Assembly (NCBI GenBank): GCA_049968255.1
Contig: JBMFRB010000003.1
Location: 32,001 to 96,000, forward strand
Direction of reading: 5' to 3'
DNA: 64,000 bases
DNA from: Candidatus Sumerlaeaceae bacterium
Lineage (GTDB): Bacteria > Sumerlaeota > Sumerlaeia > Sumerlaeales > Sumerlaeaceae
The first letter of the stretch is position 1, and the number at the start of each line of letters is the position of its first letter. This document shows, in pieces, positions 9,655-46,314 of the stretch. The translations under genes were made by a program, and so were the position numbers. The notes below the pieces were generated by a model. It searched no databases, was not told the origin of the DNA, and saw only the letters and a list, made by a program, of their open reading frames with translations.

Positions 9655-11211
9655 ATGATGCCGTCTGCGATCAGAAAGTTGATGCGAGCAAGTGGTGTGA
9701 TGGGAGCCGCTGTGGCGGCTATGTGGGCTATTTGGGACTGGAAAGCGGGAGCGACGTTCGCGCTCGCTGTGGCGTGGGCCGTGGCCAATGTGTTCGTTTG
9801 GACCCGCCTCATCCAGGCCGTGCTGGTGCTTCAGCGGCGCAGCCGCACAGCTGTGTTTAGTTGGTTGGGAGCCAAGCTTGCTATGCTTGGAGGCGGATTT
9901 GCCGCGGTTTGGGCAGCGGCGCCTCTCTCGGTCGGGCAAACATTGGCCCTCACGATCGGTGTTTTTTCGGTCTTGCTGGCCGCAACGGTACTCGCTTTCC
10001 TGGGGGCATTTCTGGACACTCCGAAAGTCAGCACCGAGGAAAACGGAAACAAAAAGAGCTCTGCAGCCAGGAGCGTCATATCAAATCTTGCGGCTGTTGC
10101 TGCAGTTTTAGCGCTTCTTGTGTCGGCGGAAGCGCGTGCCAATGCCCCAGCGGTGTCGCCTGCCCCGAGCGAGTCAAAAGCCAATGTGGGGCTTCGCGAG
10201 AAATCTCCCGGGGAGGATGCCGGGGCGCAGAAGAGTTCGGCCGCAGCATTTGCGTCGGAGGTCTCCAACGAAGGCCCAAAGCATGAAGCTTCGGCGGCGC
10301 ATGGAGAGGTGGCCGAAGGCCATGGCCACGAAGAGGCAGCCAAACCGGAGCTACCTAATTTCATTACCGTCTTGCTTCAGCTCGAGCTCGGCGGGCGCCG
10401 CATTGCCGATACTTCGCTTGGGCACTTTCTCCACACCTACGAATACCAGATTTTCCTTGTGCTGATCACGATGTTTCTCTGTGGCGTGATCTTGGCCACG
10501 GCTGGCTTGCGCGCCCTGGTCCCGGGTCCCACGCAAGCTTTGCTTGAAATGGTCGTTGAAGGCGCGTACAATTTCTTTGCGAGTGTGCTGGGCAGCCGCG
10601 AGCGTGCGCGCCGTCACATGCCTTTTTTCGGCTCACTTTTTCTCTTTATTTGGTTCAACAACATGTTTGGGATTGTGCCGTTGTTTACGGGGGCGACTTC
10701 GACGTTCCAGCTCACGGCGTCGCTGGCCGTCCTCGTGTTCTTTTATGTGCACGTCAATGCCATCCATGAAGCAGGGTTCAAGCATTGGCTTTTGCACCTC
10801 ATGCAGGATCCGAAGGACTTCATGGGCTGGGTCCTTGCGCCCGTGTTTTTTGTTCTTCACGTCATCGGCGAGCTAGCAAAACCACTTTCTTTGTCGTTGC
10901 GTCTTTTTGGCAACATCACGGGTGAGCACATTCTCAGCGGGGTCTTTCTCATTTTGGGGCTTTTGCTCATGAGCGCGGTCTGGCCGCATCCACTGGTCGG
11001 CGTGCCGCTGCATTTGCCCTTCCTATTCTTGTCGCTATTGGTGGGGACAATTCAGGCTGTCGTGTTCACGCTGCTGTCGACGATTTACCTCGCGCTGTTC
11101 TTGCCGCACGATGAGCATGAGCATGGCCACGGTGGGGAGCAGGGAGAAGAGACGTCGGAGCTGGCTGCGCACGGCAACCGCGTTAGCGCTCAGGCATCCG
11201 CGCAGCATTGA
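9655..11211 (+). CDS. atpB: F0 subunit a with N-terminally fused AtpI-like 4-TM domain
   Basis: C-terminal KPLSLSLRLFGNI and IQAVVFTLL; N-terminal ~120 aa hydrophobic block in usual atpI position, no stop between. Confidence 0.9.
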   Translation: MMPSAIRKLMRASGVMGAAVAAMWAIWDWKAGATFALAVAWAVANVFVWTRLIQAVLVLQRRSRTAVFSWLGAKLAMLGGGFAAVWAAAPLSVGQTLALTIGVFSVLLAATVLAFLGAFLDTPKVSTEENGNKKSSAARSVISNLAAVAAVLALLVSAEARANAPAVSPAPSESKANVGLREKSPGEDAGAQKSSAAAFASEVSNEGPKHEASAAHGEVAEGHGHEEAAKPELPNFITVLLQLELGGRRIADTSLGHFLHTYEYQIFLVLITMFLCGVILATAGLRALVPGPTQALLEMVVEGAYNFFASVLGSRERARRHMPFFGSLFLFIWFNNMFGIVPLFTGATSTFQLTASLAVLVFFYVHVNAIHEAGFKHWLLHLMQDPKDFMGWVLAPVFFVLHVIGELAKPLSLSLRLFGNITGEHILSGVFLILGLLLMSAVWPHPLVGVPLHLPFLFLSLLVGTIQAVVFTLLSTIYLALFLPHDEHEHGHGGEQGEETSELAAHGNRVSAQASAQH

Positions 11212-11267
11212 TAAAGTTTTGGGTCGGATTGACGAAGGCCCAGAAAATACCAGGAGGCATTGAGAGC

Positions 11268-11504
11268 ATGGACAAAGTGACAGCGATGGCATTGGCTTAT
11301 GGCATCGGTCTGGGAATTGCCGCGTTTGGTTCGGCGCTCGGTCTGGGCAAAGCCGTCGGCAGTGCGATGGAGGCAATCGGGCGCCAGCCTGAGGCATCGG
11401 GCAAGATTCAAACGGCCATGATCATCGGTTCGGCGTTCATCGAAGCGCTCACGATCTACGCGTTGATCAGCCCGTTTATCGCGTCGCTCACGTTCTTCAA
11501 ATAA
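11268..11504 (+). CDS. atpE: F0 subunit c, probably H+-coupled
   Basis: RQPE loop, IEALTIY; lacks the Na+ signature (helix-1 Gln, E-S/T); GGAGG RBS. Confidence 0.95.
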   Translation: MDKVTAMALAYGIGLGIAAFGSALGLGKAVGSAMEAIGRQPEASGKIQTAMIIGSAFIEALTIYALISPFIASLTFFK

Positions 11505-11595
11505 GCGTGGCAAATTGCGGGTTGAGCGGGGGGCGCGGAGCTTGGCTGGACGCTCAAGCGTCCCCTCTCTCCCATGAAGCGAAAGGCTGACCATC

Positions 11596-12078
11596 ATGCA
11601 AACTGTTATCGCACAAGTCCTGACAAGCGTCCTGGCCTTCGTGATCTTCTATGTGGTGGCGAAGCGCCTGTTCTGGACCAGTATCCTCAACGCCATTGAG
11701 GAGCGCCAGCGTCGCATCCAAGGTGAGCTGGAGCGTATCGAGGAACTGAAGACTAAGGTACAGGCGCTTGAGCAGGAATACCAGACACACTTGGCGCAAA
11801 TCGAGCGCGAGGCCAACCAGCGCAAGCAGCAAGAGATCGCCGAGGGCAAACGAATAGCGGAAGAGATCAAGGAGCAAGCGCGCCGCGAGGCCAAGGCTGA
11901 GATTGCACGCATGCACCAAATCCTCGAGCTCGAAATTGAGCGCGTGCGGGCAGAGCTCAAGGGTGAGGTCGTGCGCCTGACGCTGGAAGCCACCGAGCGC
12001 ATTATTCGCGAGCGGCTCGACGATGCCAAACACCGTGAACTGGTGGCAAAATTTGTCGAGGAACTGAGTCGGCGATGA
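11596..12078 (+). CDS. atpF: F0 subunit b
   Basis: N-terminal TM plus charged coiled coil; operon position. Confidence 0.92.
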   Translation: MQTVIAQVLTSVLAFVIFYVVAKRLFWTSILNAIEERQRRIQGELERIEELKTKVQALEQEYQTHLAQIEREANQRKQQEIAEGKRIAEEIKEQARREAKAEIARMHQILELEIERVRAELKGEVVRLTLEATERIIRERLDDAKHRELVAKFVEELSRR

Positions 12079-12632
12079 AGTACGTAGACCCAGTCATCAC
12101 CGAACGCTACGCCCGAGCTCTCTATCGCTCGGCCGAAAAACTTGCCCAACTTGAGGCGGTGCTGACGGATATCGAGACCCTTTCGCCGCTTCTGGGCATG
12201 ATGAGCAAGCTGCAACTGTTGCTCGACAGTCCACAGATTTCCACGGAAGCCAAGCGCGAGCTCATCGAGCGCGGTATTGCTCCACGCGTCAGCCCGGTCA
12301 CGGCTCGGCTTCTCCTTCTCTTGGTTGCCAAGGGGCGCACCGAATACGCTGTGGCGATTTTCAGCCGCTTCAAAAAGATCACGCGCGAGGCCCAAGGAAT
12401 TTTTGACGCGAAAGTAGTCTCGGCCGTACCTCTCGCTGATGGCGAGCGTGCCCGGCTGCAGGCGGTGCTTGAGGAGCATATGCGGGCGCGGCTTGCCATC
12501 TCTTTTCTCGTAGATCCGCGCGTGGTGGGAGGCGTGTGCTTCCAGTGTGGAGATCTTCTCCTCGACGACACCGTGCGGGGCAAACTCGATCGGCTGCGTG
12601 AACGTCTCGAACGGGTGGTAACCGCGAAATGA
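12075..12632 (+). CDS. atpH: F1 subunit delta
   Basis: RYARALY, SAVPL, VDPRVVGG, DDTVRGKL. Confidence 0.93.
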   Translation: MKYVDPVITERYARALYRSAEKLAQLEAVLTDIETLSPLLGMMSKLQLLLDSPQISTEAKRELIERGIAPRVSPVTARLLLLLVAKGRTEYAVAIFSRFKKITREAQGIFDAKVVSAVPLADGERARLQAVLEEHMRARLAISFLVDPRVVGGVCFQCGDLLLDDTVRGKLDRLRERLERVVTAK

Positions 12633-13117
12633 GAACCAAAGCGGAGTTTCGGAAAAAGTTTTACGTCGATGGACTTCGCACCCAGCGCTTGGCGCAGGTG
12701 TTCGACGATAGCGACCTTGCTGTGAAGCCTGCCGAGGGCTCGATGACTATGGCAGAATTGCTAGCCCATATCATCGCCAGCAGAAATTTTCTTCGTGGCG
12801 TTTTTGCCGAGGAAGCTCCCACGACCGAGCTTTTCAAAATCCCCCTCGCCATAGAAAGCGCAGCGGCTCTGCGGCGCGAGCTGGCGAGGAGCTGGCGTGC
12901 TGTGCTCGATGCGCTCGATGGGGCTGAGGACGTATGGCTCGCACAGACGATTTCCCCCTTCGGCCCGGATTGGGAGATGAGCCGCTTGGAGATGGCAGAC
13001 CTTATGCTCGAACACGAGATTCATCACCGCGGGCAGCTCAGCGTGTACGTGCGCGTGGCTGGCAAAACTCCGCCGGAACTTTACACACCAGTGACCGAAG
13101 AAGTTTTGGAGGACTAA
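12629..13117 (+). CDS. DinB/YfiT superfamily protein
   Basis: ELLAHI and HEIHHRGQL His metal motif. Confidence 0.88.
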
Positions 13118-13133
13118 CCGAGAGGATAGCGCT

Positions 13134-14711
13134 ATGGCAATTCGGCCGGAAGAAATCACGAATATCATTGAACGAGAATTAGAAGGCTTTGAGGCAGCTC
13201 TCGACGTTCAGAAGGTCGGGACAATCCTGAAGATCGGCGATTCCATCGCCACAATTTACGGCCTCATGGATGCCATGGCTGGTGAACTCTTGGAGTTCCC
13301 GGGCGGCACGATGGGCATGGTGCTCAACCTCGAAGAATCCACCGTGGGCGCGGCGATTTTCGGCAGCGATCGCGACATCAAAGAGGGCGACACGGTGCGC
13401 TGCACTGGCCGCATTGCCAGCGTACCGGTGGGCGAGGCGCTCATTGGGCGCGTGGTGAACGCTTTGGGCCAGCCCATCGACGGCAAGGGCCCCATTGTGA
13501 CCAACGAATATCGGCCCATCGAATTTCCCGCCCCCAACGTCATTGCGCGCCAGTCGGTGAAGCAGCCCCTCATGACGGGCATCAAGGCCATTGATTCGAT
13601 GATTCCCATCGGCCGCGGCCAGCGTGAGCTCATCATCGGCGATCGCCAGACGGGAAAAACCTCCGTAGCGGTGGACACAATCATCAATCAAAAGGGGCAG
13701 GACGTTATCTGCATCTACGTGGCAATCGGCCAAAAGGCCTCGACGGTGGCAGGACTTGTGCAAACGCTCGAACGTTATGGCGCAATGGATTACACAATCG
13801 TGGTCTCGGCCAGTGCCGAGGAGGCCGCTTCGTTGCTCTATATCGCCCCTTACGCTGGCTGCGCCATGGGCGAGTATTTCATGTACAACGGTGGTCATGC
13901 CTTGTGCATCTACGACGACCTGTCGAAGCATGCCACGGCCTACCGTCAGTTGTCGCTTCTGCTGAGGCGGCCCCCCGGGCGCGAGGCTTATCCGGGTGAT
14001 GTTTTTTACCTGCACTCGCGCCTCCTCGAACGCGCCGCAAAACTCAGCGAGGATGCGGAAATCATTCGCCAGTCGTGCCCCGAGGCGAAGAAGCCCGGTG
14101 GCAGTCTTACTGCACTGCCGTTCATCGAAACACAGGCTGGCGACGTCTCGGCTTATATTCCAACGAACGTTATCTCGATCACCGATGGCCAAATCTATCT
14201 CGAGCCGGACCTCTTTTACTCGGGCGTGAAACCCGCCATTAACGTAGGCCTCTCGGTGAGCCGCGTGGGCGGAAATGCCCAATACAAAGCCATGAAAAAG
14301 GTGGGCGGACGCCTGCGCCTTGAATTGGCACAATATCGTGAATTGGCCGCTTTTGCACAGTTTGGTTCAGACCTCGACGCGGCCACGCGTGCCCAACTCA
14401 CGCGCGGCGAGCGGCTCGTGGAAGTGCTCAAACAGGACCTTTTCACACCCTACGTGCTGTGGAAACAGGTGGCAATTATTTTCGCCGCAACGCAGGGCTT
14501 CCTTGACGACCTGCCACTAGCCGACGTACGCCCCTTCGAAAAGGAGCTCTACCCCTATCTTGAGAAAAATCACGCGGATATCATCCATGAAATCGAGACC
14601 ACGAAGGACCTGAGCGATGCCGTGGCAGAACGGCTCCGCAAGGCAGTCGCAAACTTCAAGCAAGACTTCGTGAAGTCGCGAACCGGTGCTCCCGCCGGCG
14701 CAACGGCTTAG
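13134..14711 (+). CDS. atpA: F1 subunit alpha
   Basis: [39 protein letters not shown]. Confidence 0.98.
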
Positions 14712-36671: not shown

Positions 36672-37580
36672 TTAGTATAGGCTCCACTCCTCGACGTGAG
36701 CCGGCGGTAGCACTGTCCAGCCGATGTCCTGGAATGCCTCCTTGGTAAGATCGATGTCGTGATGGGGGCCAAAGTAGGCTGGTTCCATGAGCAAGTTGGG
36801 TGTGTTTGACGGATCCCAATGCGAGATACTCGAGCCGTTTTCGTAGGGGTTGGGCGCATAGATTTTCACGAGCCCGCCCTTTGCGGCCACCACGTTGGGG
36901 CCATTCCAGTAGACCTGGTTGCTCGTCAGTGCTGCCAAGCGCTGTGAGTTCGTCATCGTGTCGAAATCGCCCACGCCTTGCTGGGTGAGCTGCAAACCGT
37001 AGATATCCGGCACGCCTGACAGCCATTGACCGTTCGATGAGTCAATCAAATCGACGAAACCGTAGCCGTGACCGAATTCGTGAAGGACAACTGTGACAAA
37101 GTCGATGTCGCTTCCTGCATTTCCGTCGGTTCCATAGTAAAAGCTCGTGGCACCGAGGACAACGGGGCCGTCCACGTCGGAGTTGAAGACAGCCGTAATG
37201 TCGGGTTGGGGACTGAGGTCGCTGCCATGAAGCTGATTGGCCAACGGCTGCGGATACCAGACGTTGGGCAGCGGTGCCCCCGAGAAGTTTGCATGGACGG
37301 TGGTGAAACCCGCCTGGCCAAGAACCGCGCTGGATGCATTACCGCCGAGTGGATCGAAACTCGCTTGAACTTGAACAGGAACTGTTCCCTGCAGACGGCT
37401 GGCCCACAAATTCATCGTATATTGGAAAGCATTCTGGCGAGCCGTTCCCAAAACAGGATCAAAAAAGCCCTCGCCGGCACTGTCGGTGTAAGTCACGTTG
37501 ACGGGGACAGCCGCAACTTCGAGAGTGGCCGCGCCCAGCAGTGCGACGAGCATACTGAATAGGCTGCGGTGGGTTCGCAT
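36672..37580 (-). CDS. Secreted zinc metallopeptidase-like protein
   Basis: Signal peptide; HEFGHGYGF, GSSISHWD, LLMEP; GGAG RBS. Confidence 0.85.
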   Translation of the reverse strand: MRTHRSLFSMLVALLGAATLEVAAVPVNVTYTDSAGEGFFDPVLGTARQNAFQYTMNLWASRLQGTVPVQVQASFDPLGGNASSAVLGQAGFTTVHANFSGAPLPNVWYPQPLANQLHGSDLSPQPDITAVFNSDVDGPVVLGATSFYYGTDGNAGSDIDFVTVVLHEFGHGYGFVDLIDSSNGQWLSGVPDIYGLQLTQQGVGDFDTMTNSQRLAALTSNQVYWNGPNVVAAKGGLVKIYAPNPYENGSSISHWDPSNTPNLLMEPAYFGPHHDIDLTKEAFQDIGWTVLPPAHVEEWSLY

Positions 37581-37585
37581 GGTGG

Positions 37586-37990
37586 TTACTCCTTTCCCTG
37601 CGTGGAAACTGAATCCGTGACAACCGGCTGGCAGTTGAAGTGCAATTGCCCCTGCGCGTCCTTCGTCGTTGTGACAGCGCGATGGAAACGTCCTTTCAGA
37701 TCCACAGTTATTCCGCCAGCGGGATTGTTTTCGACCACAAGTCCCTCGTGGCGCGATGCAGGGGCCTTTTTCACAACCTGTGGCGGCACAGCTTGCACGG
37801 GCTTGCCGTTTGCGTCGAGATTGACAACAAATCCGGCTGCTGCGGTGGTGGATGTTGTCTTTTTGTCGTCTGAAGGCTTGCGCTCGCCGGCGGGGACGCT
37901 CACAGGCACCAACGCTACGAGAAGAGCCATGGCCACGATGGCTCTTGCCGGGCACCAGCCGATGTTCTTGTGCTCCCGTCGTGTTTGCAT
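37586..37990 (-). CDS. Small secreted protein resembling the post-PEP-CTERM-1 domain
   Basis: Signal-like segment; GLVVENNPAGGITVDLKGRF...DAQGQLHFNC; AGGAGG RBS. Confidence 0.65.
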   Translation of the reverse strand: MQTRREHKNIGWCPARAIVAMALLVALVPVSVPAGERKPSDDKKTTSTTAAAGFVVNLDANGKPVQAVPPQVVKKAPASRHEGLVVENNPAGGITVDLKGRFHRAVTTTKDAQGQLHFNCQPVVTDSVSTQGKE

Positions 37991-41057: not shown

Positions 41058-41309
41058 CGTGCCCGCTTTGCGCACTCCTCGACAGGAAGCCCACCGTCGC
41101 GTGGCTGACCTGCCTCTGTGGGCCTTTGAGAGTTAGAGCCGGCAAACGAAGATTGAGGGAAGAAAGCGATTATAATAACAGAATAATTAGTTATTGCACA
41201 CATTTATTACCCATAAATCACTTTCAGCCGTCGAGCTTTTTTGCAATTTTCCTTTCACAATGTCGGCAAGCGATTCGATTCCTTCTTGAGCAGCATCAAC
41301 ACGAACGCG

Positions 41310-43148
41310 ATGGTGCGGGATGTGCTAAGGAGCGAACCAATCACGCACGAAAAGCCTCGGCGTCGAGCTCGGTATGCGCCAGCAGGGAATGAACCGCGCT
41401 TGCTAAGTTGGCTGGTGCTTACGCTTGCGATCGCAGCGGCGTGGAGCTTTGCCTTCGTGCCCCTGCGAGCCTCGCAGGACGAATGGTGGCATCTCAAAGC
41501 GGGCAAGTGGATCGTCGAACACGGCCGCCTGCCTGAAACCGATATTTTCACGTATGCAGGGGAAGGTCTGCGTTGGTATAACCACGAATGGCTGGCGCAA
41601 ATGCTTTTCTACGCAATCTATCATGCGGGGGAAAAGTGGCTTTGGGGAGGGCTTCGCACGCTAATCACCTTCAAGTCTCTTATTGTGGTAGCCACTTTTG
41701 CTCTCGTAGCCTGGACAGCGATGCGACGCTGCGCATCAAGGAGCGTCGCTAGTCTCGTGGCGCTTGTGATGGCCGATGTGGCGCGGCGGACCATTTATCC
41801 TCGGCCGCCAATTCTCTCCTACCTTTTACTGGCGAGCTTTGCTGCCGTGCTTTGGCAGTGGCGAGCACGCCGTTTGCGAACGCGCTGGCTTTGGGCGCTC
41901 CCCCTTGTCACCGTGCTTTGGGCGAACCTACACGGAATGGTGCCGCTGGCGGTGGCCATTGTGGGTGCATTTGCTGCGGGAGAATTCATGGACTGCGTGG
42001 GCCTAGCTTGGGCAAGCCGTGGCGCACCAGAGCGGCGGCGCTCCGCTGCGCATCGCATGATCTGGATGCAAGTGCGCCGGGGGCTGTTGCTTGCTGGCCT
42101 CGCGTTGGTATGCACTGTGGCCGCCATGGTGAACCCTTCCGGCGCTCATATCTTTTTCTTAGGGCGCAAGTTTACGGCTGACCCGGTGCTGCAAAAAGTG
42201 ATAGCGGAAATGCTACCCACGCCGGGGTTGCTTGCGCGTGTGGAGTCCGCTCGCGGCGTCATATGGACGTGGAATCCGCTCTACGTCTCGTTTTGGTGTT
42301 CGCTTGCGTTGTTTGGGATTTTGCTCGTGCGTCGCGGCGGCCGCCTGCCTACCGGGGTCGATTACGTGCTGGCGGGATTATTCATCTATCAGGCCGTTAT
42401 GCACGTCCGGCTGTTACCTCTCTATGCCGTGACCTGTGCACCGACGCTTGCCGTGCTTCTCAAAGACGAGCTTGCGACGCTCAGGCGGCGCTTTGGAAGA
42501 CTGGCGGCTTATTTGCCTGCGCTTGCCGCGTCAGTGATATTTTCCTATTATGTTTTCATTGTTGCCGAACCGCCGCCCCAAACGTTTTTCCGCCGTAACT
42601 TGGATCTGCTCCGCGGTAAGGATCGCGAGCCTGCCGATTATCCCACGCCGGTCATGCAATTTATTCTTCGCGTTGGCTTCCCTGATCGCATGTTCAGCGA
42701 GATCAATTACTGCGGCTACATGATCTGGTGGTTGAGTCCTGAGCATCATAAGCTTTTCACGGATAACCGCTTCGACCTTTTCGGAAGCCGCTTCTATCTG
42801 GAGGAGGCCACAGTGGTGCACGGTGTTGAACGCGCGGAGGCTCGCATCGGGCGTGGGTGGCAAGACATACTTGATGATTATGGGGTGAACTTTGTTGTGA
42901 TTTCGCGAAGTGCCCCGCTCAACGCCAAGCTTCGTGCAAGTGGGAGGTGGGCTCAAGTGTACTACTGGATTCCGCCGGACTGTTCGCCCACGGTGGGATT
43001 TAATGTGTGGTTGCGGCGGGAGGAGCGATTCCGCGCGTTGCACGACCGCGCTTTCCAGATTTTCCGGCAGGAGCGACCGACGGCGCTGCTACCGGATGAA
43101 TTTGAGCAATGGCTGGCAAGCAACGGGCACAAGGCGCCCACTCTGTGA
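41310..43148 (+). CDS. Polytopic membrane protein, GT-C glycosyltransferase-like
   Basis: DEWWHLKAG, HEWL, RP, LWANLHG, VNP, DNRFDLF; many TMs. Confidence 0.65.
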   Translation: MVRDVLRSEPITHEKPRRRARYAPAGNEPRLLSWLVLTLAIAAAWSFAFVPLRASQDEWWHLKAGKWIVEHGRLPETDIFTYAGEGLRWYNHEWLAQMLFYAIYHAGEKWLWGGLRTLITFKSLIVVATFALVAWTAMRRCASRSVASLVALVMADVARRTIYPRPPILSYLLLASFAAVLWQWRARRLRTRWLWALPLVTVLWANLHGMVPLAVAIVGAFAAGEFMDCVGLAWASRGAPERRRSAAHRMIWMQVRRGLLLAGLALVCTVAAMVNPSGAHIFFLGRKFTADPVLQKVIAEMLPTPGLLARVESARGVIWTWNPLYVSFWCSLALFGILLVRRGGRLPTGVDYVLAGLFIYQAVMHVRLLPLYAVTCAPTLAVLLKDELATLRRRFGRLAAYLPALAASVIFSYYVFIVAEPPPQTFFRRNLDLLRGKDREPADYPTPVMQFILRVGFPDRMFSEINYCGYMIWWLSPEHHKLFTDNRFDLFGSRFYLEEATVVHGVERAEARIGRGWQDILDDYGVNFVVISRSAPLNAKLRASGRWAQVYYWIPPDCSPTVGFNVWLRREERFRALHDRAFQIFRQERPTALLPDEFEQWLASNGHKAPTL

Positions 43149-43189: not shown

Positions 43190-44416
43190 ATGGCTGAGAT
43201 CAAACTCAACAAACCCCTCTACGAGGAAAAGGCTGGTAGCGAAAGCTGTGCCAGCGGCACCTGCCCAACAGTTGGGCGCCAGCCACGACCGCCACGGCCC
43301 GGCATCCTGACGCGTGCAGGCGCCGCGGTGATTGACCTACTGCTCCTTCATTTTATCGGACTATTCGTTATACGTTTTGCTGCGCAACCCATCATTGTGT
43401 TGGGCGACGCAGCACCATGGCTTGGCCTCGCCGTGGGTTGGCTCTATTTCGCCATCGGTGCGTCCTCACTGACTGGTGGCCGGACGCTGGGAAAAGTCAT
43501 TTTGCAGCTACGAACTGTTGACGTCACTGGCCCCGAGCTAGGATTCGCCAAGGCGGCAGCACGGTCGGCCTTGGTGTTGTGGCCGCTGGCATTGTTTCTC
43601 CTGGCCGACCGGATCGGCGAAACCTATGACCGTCCCGACACGCTTACACTTGCGCCCATGTGGGCGCGCGTCGCGGGGGCTGGTGTGTTCGGATGGTGGC
43701 TCGGAAATGTTTTGTTCGCGTCGTTCGATCCCTACGGTCGTGCGCTGTGGGATTGCTGGATCGGCTCAGTCGTCATTACATCCGACTGCGAGGCTGAGGC
43801 CTTAGGCGAGTTTATGCGCGCCGCGCGCATGGCTCAACAGCAACCAATGACGCCACGATCGGCGGTCGCGCTCGTGGTGACGTTTCTCATGTGTGTGGGC
43901 GGTTTTACCGCGATGGTGTGGTGGGAAGCTCAGAGGATGGCGCAGCTCCCCACGGAGGACCGTGAGCGCTTCATCGCTCAGAAAAAAAAGTTGTACGTTC
44001 CTGGCTTTGGTCAGCCCGTGCCGCTTGGACCATCGCGTGGGACGGAGCCTGGCGATGAACAAACGTCCACGGCCCATTTTCAGTACCGTCGCCGCGGGAC
44101 CATTGATACAAATGTGCTGAAAAATAATCCTGCCGTTGTAAGCAAGGCGCGCGAGCTTGCAGAAGTGAGTCTCGAAGAAATGCGTCGACTCGTCCGAAAC
44201 GAAAAAGCGGACGTGCCCCTTGACGCGTTGCCGGCGAAAGTTCGTTTTGATGTGGGCTTTGCCTCATATTGCGATTTGCTTTTCGCCTGGGATGCAGTGG
44301 AAGTTTTGACCTTCTCACACACAATCGCTTTGCGCGAAGAGCTCGAAGCCGTCAGACGCGGCCCTGCCCAAGATAAGCAAACGACCGCGACAGGGAGCAG
44401 TTCTGGAGCACGATGA
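43190..44416 (+). CDS. RDD-family membrane protein with C-terminal extension
   Basis: RAGAAVID, GRTLGK, AAARS, ALWD. Confidence 0.8.
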   Translation: MAEIKLNKPLYEEKAGSESCASGTCPTVGRQPRPPRPGILTRAGAAVIDLLLLHFIGLFVIRFAAQPIIVLGDAAPWLGLAVGWLYFAIGASSLTGGRTLGKVILQLRTVDVTGPELGFAKAAARSALVLWPLALFLLADRIGETYDRPDTLTLAPMWARVAGAGVFGWWLGNVLFASFDPYGRALWDCWIGSVVITSDCEAEALGEFMRAARMAQQQPMTPRSAVALVVTFLMCVGGFTAMVWWEAQRMAQLPTEDRERFIAQKKKLYVPGFGQPVPLGPSRGTEPGDEQTSTAHFQYRRRGTIDTNVLKNNPAVVSKARELAEVSLEEMRRLVRNEKADVPLDALPAKVRFDVGFASYCDLLFAWDAVEVLTFSHTIALREELEAVRRGPAQDKQTTATGSSSGAR

Positions 44417-44604: not shown

Positions 44605-46197
44605 CTATTTCTCTTTTTCGCGACTTTGCGCGATACTAGCCGCATCCGATTGGGAAAGAGGCGCAGGGATGCGCGGCGGTGCTCCATTGAAATACATGAC
44701 AAAGTCATCGTGCGTCCCCTCGATACCATCACGGCCGGGCGCAATAAGAAGCCCCCCGGAGTCGTTACTAAGGACGAAGCGATTGCCCCAAGAGTCGGTC
44801 ACTTCCTGTTCTTCAGCGACGCCGTCGGCCACCAGTTTTTTCACCGTGGGAAATGCGCCTCCATGCGCTTGCCTATAGTCGAGCGCCTTCAGCAGGATTG
44901 CCTCCATGCGCGAGCGAGTCGTGTCAATGCGCCGCTTGTCATCCTCGATAATTTGTTCAATTGTTTTGCTTTCACTCTGTTGCCCGGGGGGATTGAGCCA
45001 CAACTGAATGCGTTTGGCCAGCCAGGAGGGTTCTTTCTTTCCTCCTTCCTGCTCGCGCGGCATCAGCGCACTGGTCAGGGCCAAAGCCACGATAAAGATG
45101 CCGATGAGCGCAAGAATGTACGTGCGAGCACGCGAGGGCGGCTCGGGTTCGGGCAGTTCCCCCGCCTCAATACGCACGATGCCTTCTTGAACGTAAGAGT
45201 TAGCACCGGTCGCGCCTGCTACCGACCCTACGTCACCTAGCTCGTCCAGAAGCACGGTCTGCGCAACGTGCGGGTGGAGCTCTGTGGTGGAAGTCCGCCG
45301 CTCTTTGGCCAGCCGATGGATCTTTGCGGCCTCTAAATCTCGAATCAGCGATTCATAATCTTGATAGCGATTGTTGGGATCTTTCTCCATCATGCGACAA
45401 ATGATTTCGCTGATGTCGCCTGGGACCTTGGGGTTCACAAGGTAGGGCGGTGTGAGTGGTCGGTTGACATGCTGGAGCATGATCTGCATCGGCGTGTCGC
45501 CCTCGAACGGACACTGGTGCGTGACAAGTTCATAGAACGTGGCCCCAAGCGAGTAGATGTCCGAGCGGTGGTCCACCGTGCGCCCCAGGGCTTGCTCAGG
45601 CGCAATATAGCGCGGAGTGCCCACAACCACCCCTACAGCAGTGAGCAGCGACTTGTCCCACATCGATTTCGCGAGGCCGAAATCAATGATCTTGAGCACG
45701 AAATCGTTGGTGACGAGGAGGTTCGAGGGCTTAATATCGCGGTGGATAATGGTTTGCCGGTAAGCGTATTCGAGACCTCGCGCCGCCTGCAGGATAAAAT
45801 CCACAAGCTGCGAAAAAGGCAGCTCAACTCCGCCCCGCGCAAAGCGGTCGAGCGGTTCGCCTTCGATGTATTCCATCACGATAAAAGGTCGCTGATGTTC
45901 ATCGTGTTCGTAGGCCAGGATGCGCGCGATATTGGGGTGATCGAGCGTCATCGCATTGCGCGCTTCACGGTCAAAGCGGTGGAGTGCCTCAGGGTCGGAA
46001 TAGGCCTCGGGATCGAGCACCTTGATCGCAACGTGGCGATTAGTGCTCGGGTCAATGGCCTTGAGCACTTCGCCCATTCCGCCGCGGCCAAGCGAACGCA
46101 CGATCGTGTAGCGGCCAATGCGTCGGACGGTTACTTCCAGGCGTCCTCCCGGAACATTTGTGCTTTCAGAGGTCATGCTCGAGTTCCCACCATGCAA
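44605..46197 (-). CDS. Membrane Ser/Thr kinase with C-terminal GspG-like domain
   Basis: GRGGMG, VAIK, HRDIKPSN, DFG, YIAPE, DIYSLG; one TM; then DSWGN...PGRDGIEGTHDD. Confidence 0.92.
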   Translation of the reverse strand: MHGGNSSMTSESTNVPGGRLEVTVRRIGRYTIVRSLGRGGMGEVLKAIDPSTNRHVAIKVLDPEAYSDPEALHRFDREARNAMTLDHPNIARILAYEHDEHQRPFIVMEYIEGEPLDRFARGGVELPFSQLVDFILQAARGLEYAYRQTIIHRDIKPSNLLVTNDFVLKIIDFGLAKSMWDKSLLTAVGVVVGTPRYIAPEQALGRTVDHRSDIYSLGATFYELVTHQCPFEGDTPMQIMLQHVNRPLTPPYLVNPKVPGDISEIICRMMEKDPNNRYQDYESLIRDLEAAKIHRLAKERRTSTTELHPHVAQTVLLDELGDVGSVAGATGANSYVQEGIVRIEAGELPEPEPPSRARTYILALIGIFIVALALTSALMPREQEGGKKEPSWLAKRIQLWLNPPGQQSESKTIEQIIEDDKRRIDTTRSRMEAILLKALDYRQAHGGAFPTVKKLVADGVAEEQEVTDSWGNRFVLSNDSGGLLIAPGRDGIEGTHDDFVMYFNGAPPRIPAPLSQSDAASIAQSREKEK

Positions 46198-46314
46198 TTA
46201 TAGCGGCGAGGTGCCCGTGTGTGTCAATGCAAACTCCGGCCAAAGCTCACCATGGGCCGGCCTTTATGTTTTTTGTCTTGCCAGGGATGCGTCGTCGCAT
46301 TTGCGTTAGGGCCT

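Follow-up and report, generated by a model that had tools for sequence, protein, structure and literature searches.

A minus-strand gene in the window, a 64,000-nucleotide stretch of DNA from a Candidatus Sumerlaeaceae bacterium, encodes what is almost certainly an intact Ser/Thr kinase with one transmembrane (TM) helix and an ectodomain of the GspG pseudopilin fold, in which the Ca2+ ligands are conserved and the prepilin site and alpha1N have been lost. The fusion is real and conserved. Fusions of this kind have recently been noted elsewhere, the GspG-type variant is apparently undescribed, and the function discussed below is a proposal.

Gene, kinase domain, and membrane segment

The receptor-type Ser/Thr kinase gene occupies 44605..46176 on the minus strand and specifies 523 amino acids counted from the ATG at 46176. 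The open reading frame (ORF) spans 44605-46197 (-) and holds 530 codons if read from the TTG at 46197, but the ATG is the likelier start, given that a near-identical database copy (P0002) has 523 amino acids. Residue numbers used here run from the TTG. The gene is overlapped by two plus-strand ORFs, 44626-45240 and 45361-46203, which were regarded as its shadows; promoter and terminator scans at the locus gave scores at chance level.

An earlier note on this DNA had read the protein as an intact Hanks kinase with one TM segment, and the domain, the segment, and the motifs are where it placed them. The RD-type kinase domain (residues 30-279; 45361..46110, -) matches Pfam Pkinase with an E value of 5e-51 (PF00069, 174 bits against a cutoff of 31.7) and retains a complete set of catalytic motifs (G-loop GRGGMG, VAIK K59, E78, HRDIKPSN, DFG, and APE), features that place it among the Hanks-type Ser/Thr kinases. 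The closest solved structures are those of PknA, PknB, and StkP (phmmer E of about 1e-54), which share with it an RD kinase, a disordered juxtamembrane linker, one TM segment, and an extracytoplasmic domain. Unlike the PASTA kinases, it yields no match to PASTA repeats in Pfam or NCBIfam; classification as a PknB/Stk1 PASTA kinase was ruled out, the NF033483 score being 319.6 against a cutoff of 450 and the PASTA repeats absent.

The linker, at about residues 300-355 (45133..45300, -), is cytoplasmic and predicted to be disordered (pLDDT < 50 over model residues 300-337), and it contains a juxtamembrane YxxEGxV motif that is kept by a close subfamily (17 of 61 family rows). The single TM helix (residues 361-379; 45061..45117, -) is the sole hydrophobic peak in the protein. 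It contains neither a Glu nor a prepilin cleavage motif and is not the pilin alpha1N. The one TM segment and the absence of a signal peptide suggest that the head is periplasmic; in a positive-inside test, 22 of the 61 rows are more basic before the TM, a charge bias that is uninformative on topology.

Assignment of the ectodomain to GspG

Between the TM and the head is a spacer with a short helix (residues 392-401; 44995..45024, -) that appears in both models and is probably amphipathic, its hydrophobic moment exceeding that of shuffled sequences in 40 of 60 rows (P = 5e-4). The head itself (residues 416-511; 44665..44952, -) corresponds to PulG 25-132 by profile, HHalign, and fold comparison and consists of an alpha1C helix, a shortened alpha-beta loop, the DxWG motif, beta strands, and the Ca2+ loop. 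Beyond this matched pilin core, the AlphaFold model has a C-terminal helix after the conserved P511 (44611..44652, -). The C-terminal segments quoted in the earlier note lie at 44902-44919 (TRSRME), 44776-44796 (DSWGNRF), and 44725-44748 (LIAPGRDG).

Direct sequence searches of this region are silent. The window protein has no Pfam T2SSG match above the gathering score, and the ectodomain has no useful match among NCBIfam or PDB sequences (phmmer and profile); its Pfam matches to Skp1_POZ (E of 0.14) and GreAB-C (E of 0.029) were judged to be noise. The best of four orthologs reaches T2SSG at an E of just 0.11, but the Pfam T2SSG cutoff of 21 is passed by two relatives, P0118 at 23.3 bits and P0155 at 24.8 bits, and domain databases may therefore already contain this architecture without its having been remarked on. 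An ESM Atlas search with residues 385-530 ranks T2SSG clusters first (0.91), with the family on 30 to 64% of their members, and serves as a lead only.

The assignment comes instead from the agreement of profile search, HHalign, and fold comparison, all of which bear out the GspG-like head proposed in the earlier note. With a profile of the four orthologous ectodomains, 118 matches were recovered from 1.84 billion proteins, and, counting the best five families per protein, PF08334 occurs at an E of ≤0.01 in at least 72 of them, N_methyl in 14, and Pkinase in 24. HHalign of seven family rows against six annotated GspG proteins gives 95.3% (E of 2e-8), in a register that is sound at the DxWG motif and the Ca2+ loop and off in the helix. 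The AlphaFold model of the head, built from an alignment of 40 rows of which none is a prepilin, has a mean pLDDT of 91.6. In the Foldseek comparison that the earlier note had proposed, enterohemorrhagic E. coli (EHEC) GspG is indeed the top match (probability of 1.00), but at an E of 0.014, and there are no matches at an E of ≤0.001.

A VIA comparison with 48,161 chains places EpsG (Z of 9.2, 2.6 Å, 92 residues aligned) and PulG (Z of 8.9, 2.1 Å, 86 residues) at the top, and the first 26 rows are all pilin entries. After realignment, six GspG/PulG/EpsG entries lead (Z of 9.3 to 10.2) and the next pilin follows at 7.9, GspG entries thus outranking type IV pilins; inositol monophosphatase rows (Z of ≤4.9) are background. 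The head therefore has in common with GspG, PulG, and EpsG (PF08334; PDB 3g20, 5o2y, 4lw9, and 5wda) a fold that matches at a Z of 9 to 10, with root mean square deviations of 2.1 to 2.6 Å over 83 to 92 residues in five entries and of 4.9 Å in 3g20_B (Z of 10.2). The helix Tyr50, the DxWG motif, and Ca2+ ligands 114, 117, 119, 122, and 125 are also held in common and in register. On these models and alignments, the ectodomain is assigned the fold of a GspG-type pseudopilin head. It differs from GspG in an alpha-beta loop that is shorter by about 12 residues and in an additional C-terminal strand, Pro, and helix. A head-only tree (71 rows, 100 columns) has a resolution too low to name the donor pilin.

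The pairing of DxWG with GxDGx5DD in the window kinase is not due to chance. It never arose when residues 380-530 were shuffled 200,000 times, and among 7,990 six-frame ORFs (1.18 M residues, from the window plus 78 loci) it is present in three only, those of the window kinase and two orthologs.

Conservation of the DxWG motif and the Ca2+ loop

The DSWG motif (44785..44796, -) is equivalent to PulG D92-G95, and its Asp is present in 61 of 61 family rows and its Trp in 60. Downstream of it lies a predicted Ca2+-binding loop (44704..44739, -) whose sequence, G-R-D-G-I-E-G-T-H-D-D, is an exact match to the PERCAL motif and is in register with GspG, as the earlier note had anticipated. Residues P487, D490, I492, T495, and D498 align with positions 114, 117, 119, 122, and 125, through which GspG coordinates Ca2+ (PMC3396595 and bioRxiv 10.64898/2026.04.10.717868). 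The head thus carries the GspG ligand set, comprising side chains 117, 122, and 125 and backbone positions 114 and 119, and is predicted to bind Ca2+.

No other part of the ectodomain is as conserved as this loop (G488 in 61 of 61 rows, D490 in 60, D497 in 61, and D498 in 60), and a pattern test finds the D/T(S)/D ligands intact in 57 of 61. According to the binding data in PMC3396595, PERCAL peptides bind Ca2+ specifically at 33 to 79 µM, and the authors argue that sites with affinities of that order would be saturated at environmental Ca2+. PulG is destabilized once Ca2+ is removed, as stated in the pertinent part of bioRxiv 10.64898/2026.04.10.717868. A cofold of two ectodomains with two Ca2+ ions, run without controls, scores 0.00, a value that weighs neither way.

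Loss of filament assembly features

The earlier note supposed that the kinase replaces the prepilin leader, which the layout of the protein contradicts. The TM is not alpha1N, and the HHalign match to GspG stops short of it; the PulG match begins at PulG 25, which is window residue 416. The TM is situated about 31 residues further upstream of the head than a pilin alpha1N, with a short helix and a Pro-containing loop between, and there is no alpha1N in register with the head helix. The TM-to-DxW distance has a median of 97 residues (range, 83 to 104) in 33 kinase rows versus 64 (range, 62 to 71) in 14 prepilins. A prepilin cleavage/methylation motif with Glu5 occurs in none of the 61 family rows, as opposed to 14 of the 14 N_methyl matches used as controls.

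Residues that pair during PulG assembly, E44/D48-R87/R88 (bioRxiv 10.64898/2026.04.10.717868, in its account of the interface), are replaced by L435, L439, E463, and Q464. With numbering taken from the 5wda alignment and positions 87 and 88 counted gaplessly back from D92, an acid at 48 together with a basic residue at 87 or 88 occurs in 2 of 61 family rows and in 4 of 6 canonical GspG proteins. The same combination is found in 1 of 14 short prepilins, so its absence excludes the canonical T2SS interface only. In contrast to GspG, the window kinase lacks the leader, the cleavage site, Glu5, alpha1N, and the E44/D48-R87/R88 pairs, and its gene stands outside any gsp operon. Because alpha1N is gone, no prepilin motif is present, and some 31 extra residues separate TM and head, the protein cannot polymerize, which agrees with the view of the earlier note that the head is not processed and polymerized normally. 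It has a pseudopilin head but is no pseudopilin.

The kinase family and its origin

The survey of this architecture that the earlier note had called for recovers 61 kinase-TM-head proteins, which form 60 clusters at 90% identity and 32 at 50%. They comprise the window protein and 5, 3, 24, and 28 rows from successive searches, the last 28 chosen from 113 new kinases by a head profile built from family rows; the near-identical P0002 was excluded. A phylum name is attached to 4 of the 61 (L001 to L003 and P0027), every one of them Sumerlaeota. The HxDxKPxN and DFG motifs are present in 56 rows. Across eight orthologs, identity is 41 to 74% in the head versus 64 to 94% in the kinase, and the head surface is variable except for the core, the Ca2+ loop, and T427-x-x-R430-M431.

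Three members (P0033, P0065, and P0118) have degenerate catalytic motifs and are likely pseudokinases, with head and Ca2+ ligands kept. In P0056, head and TM are each present twice, and P0025, which joins a CNNM membrane domain to the tail of this head, is probably a misassembled or chimeric record.

Sequence trees suggest that there was likely one main, old fusion of kinase and head, and possibly a second. In a quick kinase tree, the fusion kinases fall on one side of a branch (31 versus 75; SH-aLRT, 100), with an outgroup that holds no other Sumerlaeota kinase, and the head is absent from the other 75 GTDB kinase loci. A tree that took 29 of 59 rows and excluded the long branches P0118, P0033, P0065, P0100, and P0041 unites 26 of the 29 in one clade (SH-aLRT, 96) and leaves P0182, P0185, and P0188 outside. 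A FastTree analysis of 59 head rows among 169 splits the fusions, with four changes and long branches meeting, and nests the partial Sumerlaeota protein P0169 inside the family. In two sister kinases from Sumerlaeota, P0192 and P0193, the TM is present but the ectodomain is short and headless, a layout that fits either addition of the head to an existing kinase-TM scaffold or its loss from these two. A search for shorter relatives, with 8,000 candidates scored, found four proteins, all fragments of the same kinase family and none a pilin.

The head outside kinases and the genomic neighborhood

Heads of this type also occur in proteins other than kinases. In three bacterial alpha-2-macroglobulins (P0045, P0073, and P0124), the A2M domain is preceded by an insertion of three or four GspG-like heads, with the Ca2+-loop motif repeated in each, and 24 of the 118 profile matches have two or more matched stretches, marking them as tandem proteins. 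Among the latter, P0030, P0036, P0040, P0092, and P0108 consist of four tandem T2SSG heads in 450 to 490 amino acids and look secreted, without a prepilin leader. Because macroglobulins and tandem arrays hold it, the head can serve outside pili. Further profile matches are DUF4388 fusions, TraB fusions, and lipoprotein-like proteins. Four kinase-less proteins (P0055, P0060, P0104, and P0122) are single pass, with the order TM-spacer-head and a TM-to-DxW distance of 92 to 98, and share a cytoplasmic LAxMYV motif that none of the other retrieved proteins has; they are possible co-receptors or decoys.

The kinase has fabG-like, RDD, and ABC genes as neighbors, and no pilus genes or gsp cluster are beside it at any of four loci (the window and L001 to L003). 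Scans of 43 ORFs in the window and 9 in L002 and L003, chosen by eye, turned up no pilin, T2SS, or type IV pilus family, and neither did the ORF comparison of L001 to L003, in which L001 was judged by its identity to the window. L001, a Sumerlaeaceae contig, is syntenic with the window over 13 kb. A convergent RDD-family gene (43190-44416) and a gene for a 635-amino-acid multipass membrane protein without a Pfam match (41241-43148) are kept in L001 and L003 and not in L002.

Kinase-RDD fusions exist in P0200, P0206, P0210, and P0214. Elsewhere in the window, the protein encoded at 36672-37955 (-) is without a Pfam match and looks secreted, with a metalloprotease-like HEFGH motif and a terminal VEEWSLY that we take to resemble a short C-terminal sorting tag. 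An ATP synthase gene run (9655-14711, +) has a DinB-family gene (12629-13117) between the delta and alpha subunits.

Relation to known systems

Pilin-like proteins that lack alpha1N and bear Ser/Thr kinase or beta-barrel domains are reported from cyanobacteria in the relevant passages of PMC13759059, making the present fusion less surprising than the earlier note had assumed. Such an architecture is accordingly known, but it is not characterized in those passages: the accompanying table has 23 rows of alpha1N-less proteins with the kinase rows not told apart, and regulation of the pilus is a function that the authors suggest only. Proteins of the Oscil6304_4885 type (S6 Fig of PMC13759059) share with the window kinase an N-terminal Ser/Thr kinase and an alpha1N-less pilin head; their heads are described there as a 4-stranded type IV pilin core, whereas the window head is a GspG core with a PERCAL loop.

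An Atlas search with the whole window protein returned a cyanobacterial cluster at rank 15 (51 members; Pkinase on 100% and Pilin_GH [PF16734] on 94%). Pilin_GH is absent from the window protein and 30 relatives scanned for all families and is not among the matches listed for 148 scanned proteins, part of them with the best five families. Working from descriptions of the cyanobacterial proteins, we infer that the fusions of the two groups arose independently. Searches at the abstract level, with thin coverage of the subscription literature, found neither a GspG-type kinase with a PERCAL loop nor the Sumerlaeota family in print, and neither is described in the keyword passages of PMC8092238, PMC10866078, PMC6668835, and PMC10651672. 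The PERCAL motif is known from peroxidase inserts and GspG, and the sole "kinase" in the pertinent sections of PMC3396595 is an acetate kinase structure. As far as these sources go, a kinase joined to an alpha1N-less pilin fold is in print, and the GspG-type variant is apparently undescribed.

Proposed function and alternatives

We tentatively favor, at somewhat less than even chances for the whole chain including a type IV filament partner, a single-pass Sumerlaeota receptor Ser/Thr kinase with a domesticated GspG head. With this head, the kinase may be a sensor of the cell envelope or of the pilus machinery. Ca2+ would stabilize the head, as in GspG, and the head would stay tethered to the membrane as a protein-contact module, never built into a filament. 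Binding of a partner would cluster the kinases and lead to trans-autophosphorylation of their activation loops, with T186 and T194 as candidate sites; in PknB-type kinases, clustering leads to trans-autophosphorylation of the activation loop. As partner, the single best guess would be part of the cell's own type IV filament apparatus, either pilins in the membrane or the base of the filament, in which case the kinase would report the pilin pool or its assembly state. Such a partner is ranked first because a second phylum also has fusions of kinase and pilin, Sumerlaeota metagenome-assembled genomes (MAGs) encode type IV pili (all of those treated in the relevant part of one survey, PMC8092238), and kinases that sense the pilin pool exist (PilS and PleC, in the pertinent passages of PMC6058289 and PMC7196804).

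The long retention of the head (61 rows, 57 of them with intact ligands, in 32 clusters at 50% identity), the single clade of 26 of 29 sampled fusion kinases, the GspG-family identity of the top six fold matches from an alignment without prepilins, and the regulatory role suggested for the cyanobacterial proteins (PMC13759059, in part) all favor this explanation. Against a filament partner stand the absence of pilus genes from all four neighborhoods, the variable head surface outside the core, Ca2+ loop, and T427-x-x-R430-M431, and the presence of the head in macroglobulins and tandem arrays, as well as the loss of E44/D48-R87/R88, which counts against the canonical T2SS interface only; the charge bias (22 of 61) does not confirm the topology. 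PilS and PleC resemble the window kinase as membrane kinases in the function proposed for it, but both are histidine kinases without a pilin domain that, in the sections of PMC6058289 and PMC7196804 concerned, read pilin through TM segments and not heads. A bolder version, in which an old and diversified Sumerlaeota receptor-kinase family reads, through head-to-head contacts of its domesticated, Ca2+-bound pseudopilin head, the pilin pool or the base of the filament, has the kinase-less TM-head proteins as co-receptors or decoys, and follows a route distinct from that of PilS and PleC and independent of the cyanobacterial fusions, would be a long shot of perhaps one in four.

Several of the same observations bear on a somewhat less probable alternative, in which the head is a generic Ca2+-stabilized interaction module outside pilus biology and what the kinase senses is a different protein or polymer of the envelope, perhaps via the kinase-less TM-spacer-head proteins, which share its TM-to-DxW spacing (92 to 98). 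Occurrence of the head in macroglobulins, in proteins with two to four tandem copies, in DUF4388 and TraB fusions, and in lipoprotein-like proteins would be expected of such a module, as would N_methyl on just 14 of 118 matches (best five families per protein), the absence of pilus genes nearby, and the missing assembly residues. The cyanobacterial kinase-pilin fusions, which have a different pilin head, fit a pilin-related use, and the neighborhood evidence comes from four loci only. Pilus genes are often scattered in genomes.

Clearly less probable is that the head senses periplasmic Ca2+ directly, with Ca2+ folding the head and switching kinase clustering. The conservation of the loop, the micromolar binding by PERCAL peptides (33 to 79 µM; PMC3396595, in part), and the destabilization of PulG upon Ca2+ removal (bioRxiv 10.64898/2026.04.10.717868, in part) would suit a sensor, but in GspG this loop plays a structural part, and its conservation can be explained without any sensing role; sites with PERCAL affinities would, following the authors of PMC3396595, already be saturated at environmental Ca2+. 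Still more doubtful is a head that acts as a passive stabilizer or remnant of a kinase controlled from the cytoplasm or membrane: the headless sister kinases P0192 and P0193 and the lower conservation of the head relative to the kinase (41 to 74% versus 64 to 94%) agree with it, but head and ligands are kept across 32 clusters at 50% identity, even in the degenerate kinases P0033, P0065, and P0118, and the head is duplicated in P0056. That the protein is built into a pilus, or caps its base, as an unprocessed subunit is very improbable. It has the GspG fold, and some minor pilins lack Glu5 (in the relevant part of PMC13759059), but alpha1N and the cleavage site are both missing, there are about 31 additional residues and a break in the helix, and the 350-residue cytoplasmic part cannot leave the membrane.

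The kinase described here adds one more extracytoplasmic domain type to the bacterial receptor kinases. It also presents the GspG head, familiar chiefly as part of a filament, as a mobile module with predicted Ca2+ binding that occurs in kinases, macroglobulins, and tandem proteins and is mostly missed by Pfam. Taken with the cyanobacterial fusions, the family points to more than one acquisition of a pilin head by kinases. Since the Sumerlaeota hosts are known here only from MAGs, experiments would be easier with the cyanobacterial counterparts, whose hosts can be cultured. Should type IV filaments prove to be what these kinases monitor, there would be a direct tie between Ser/Thr phosphorylation and the state of the pilus.
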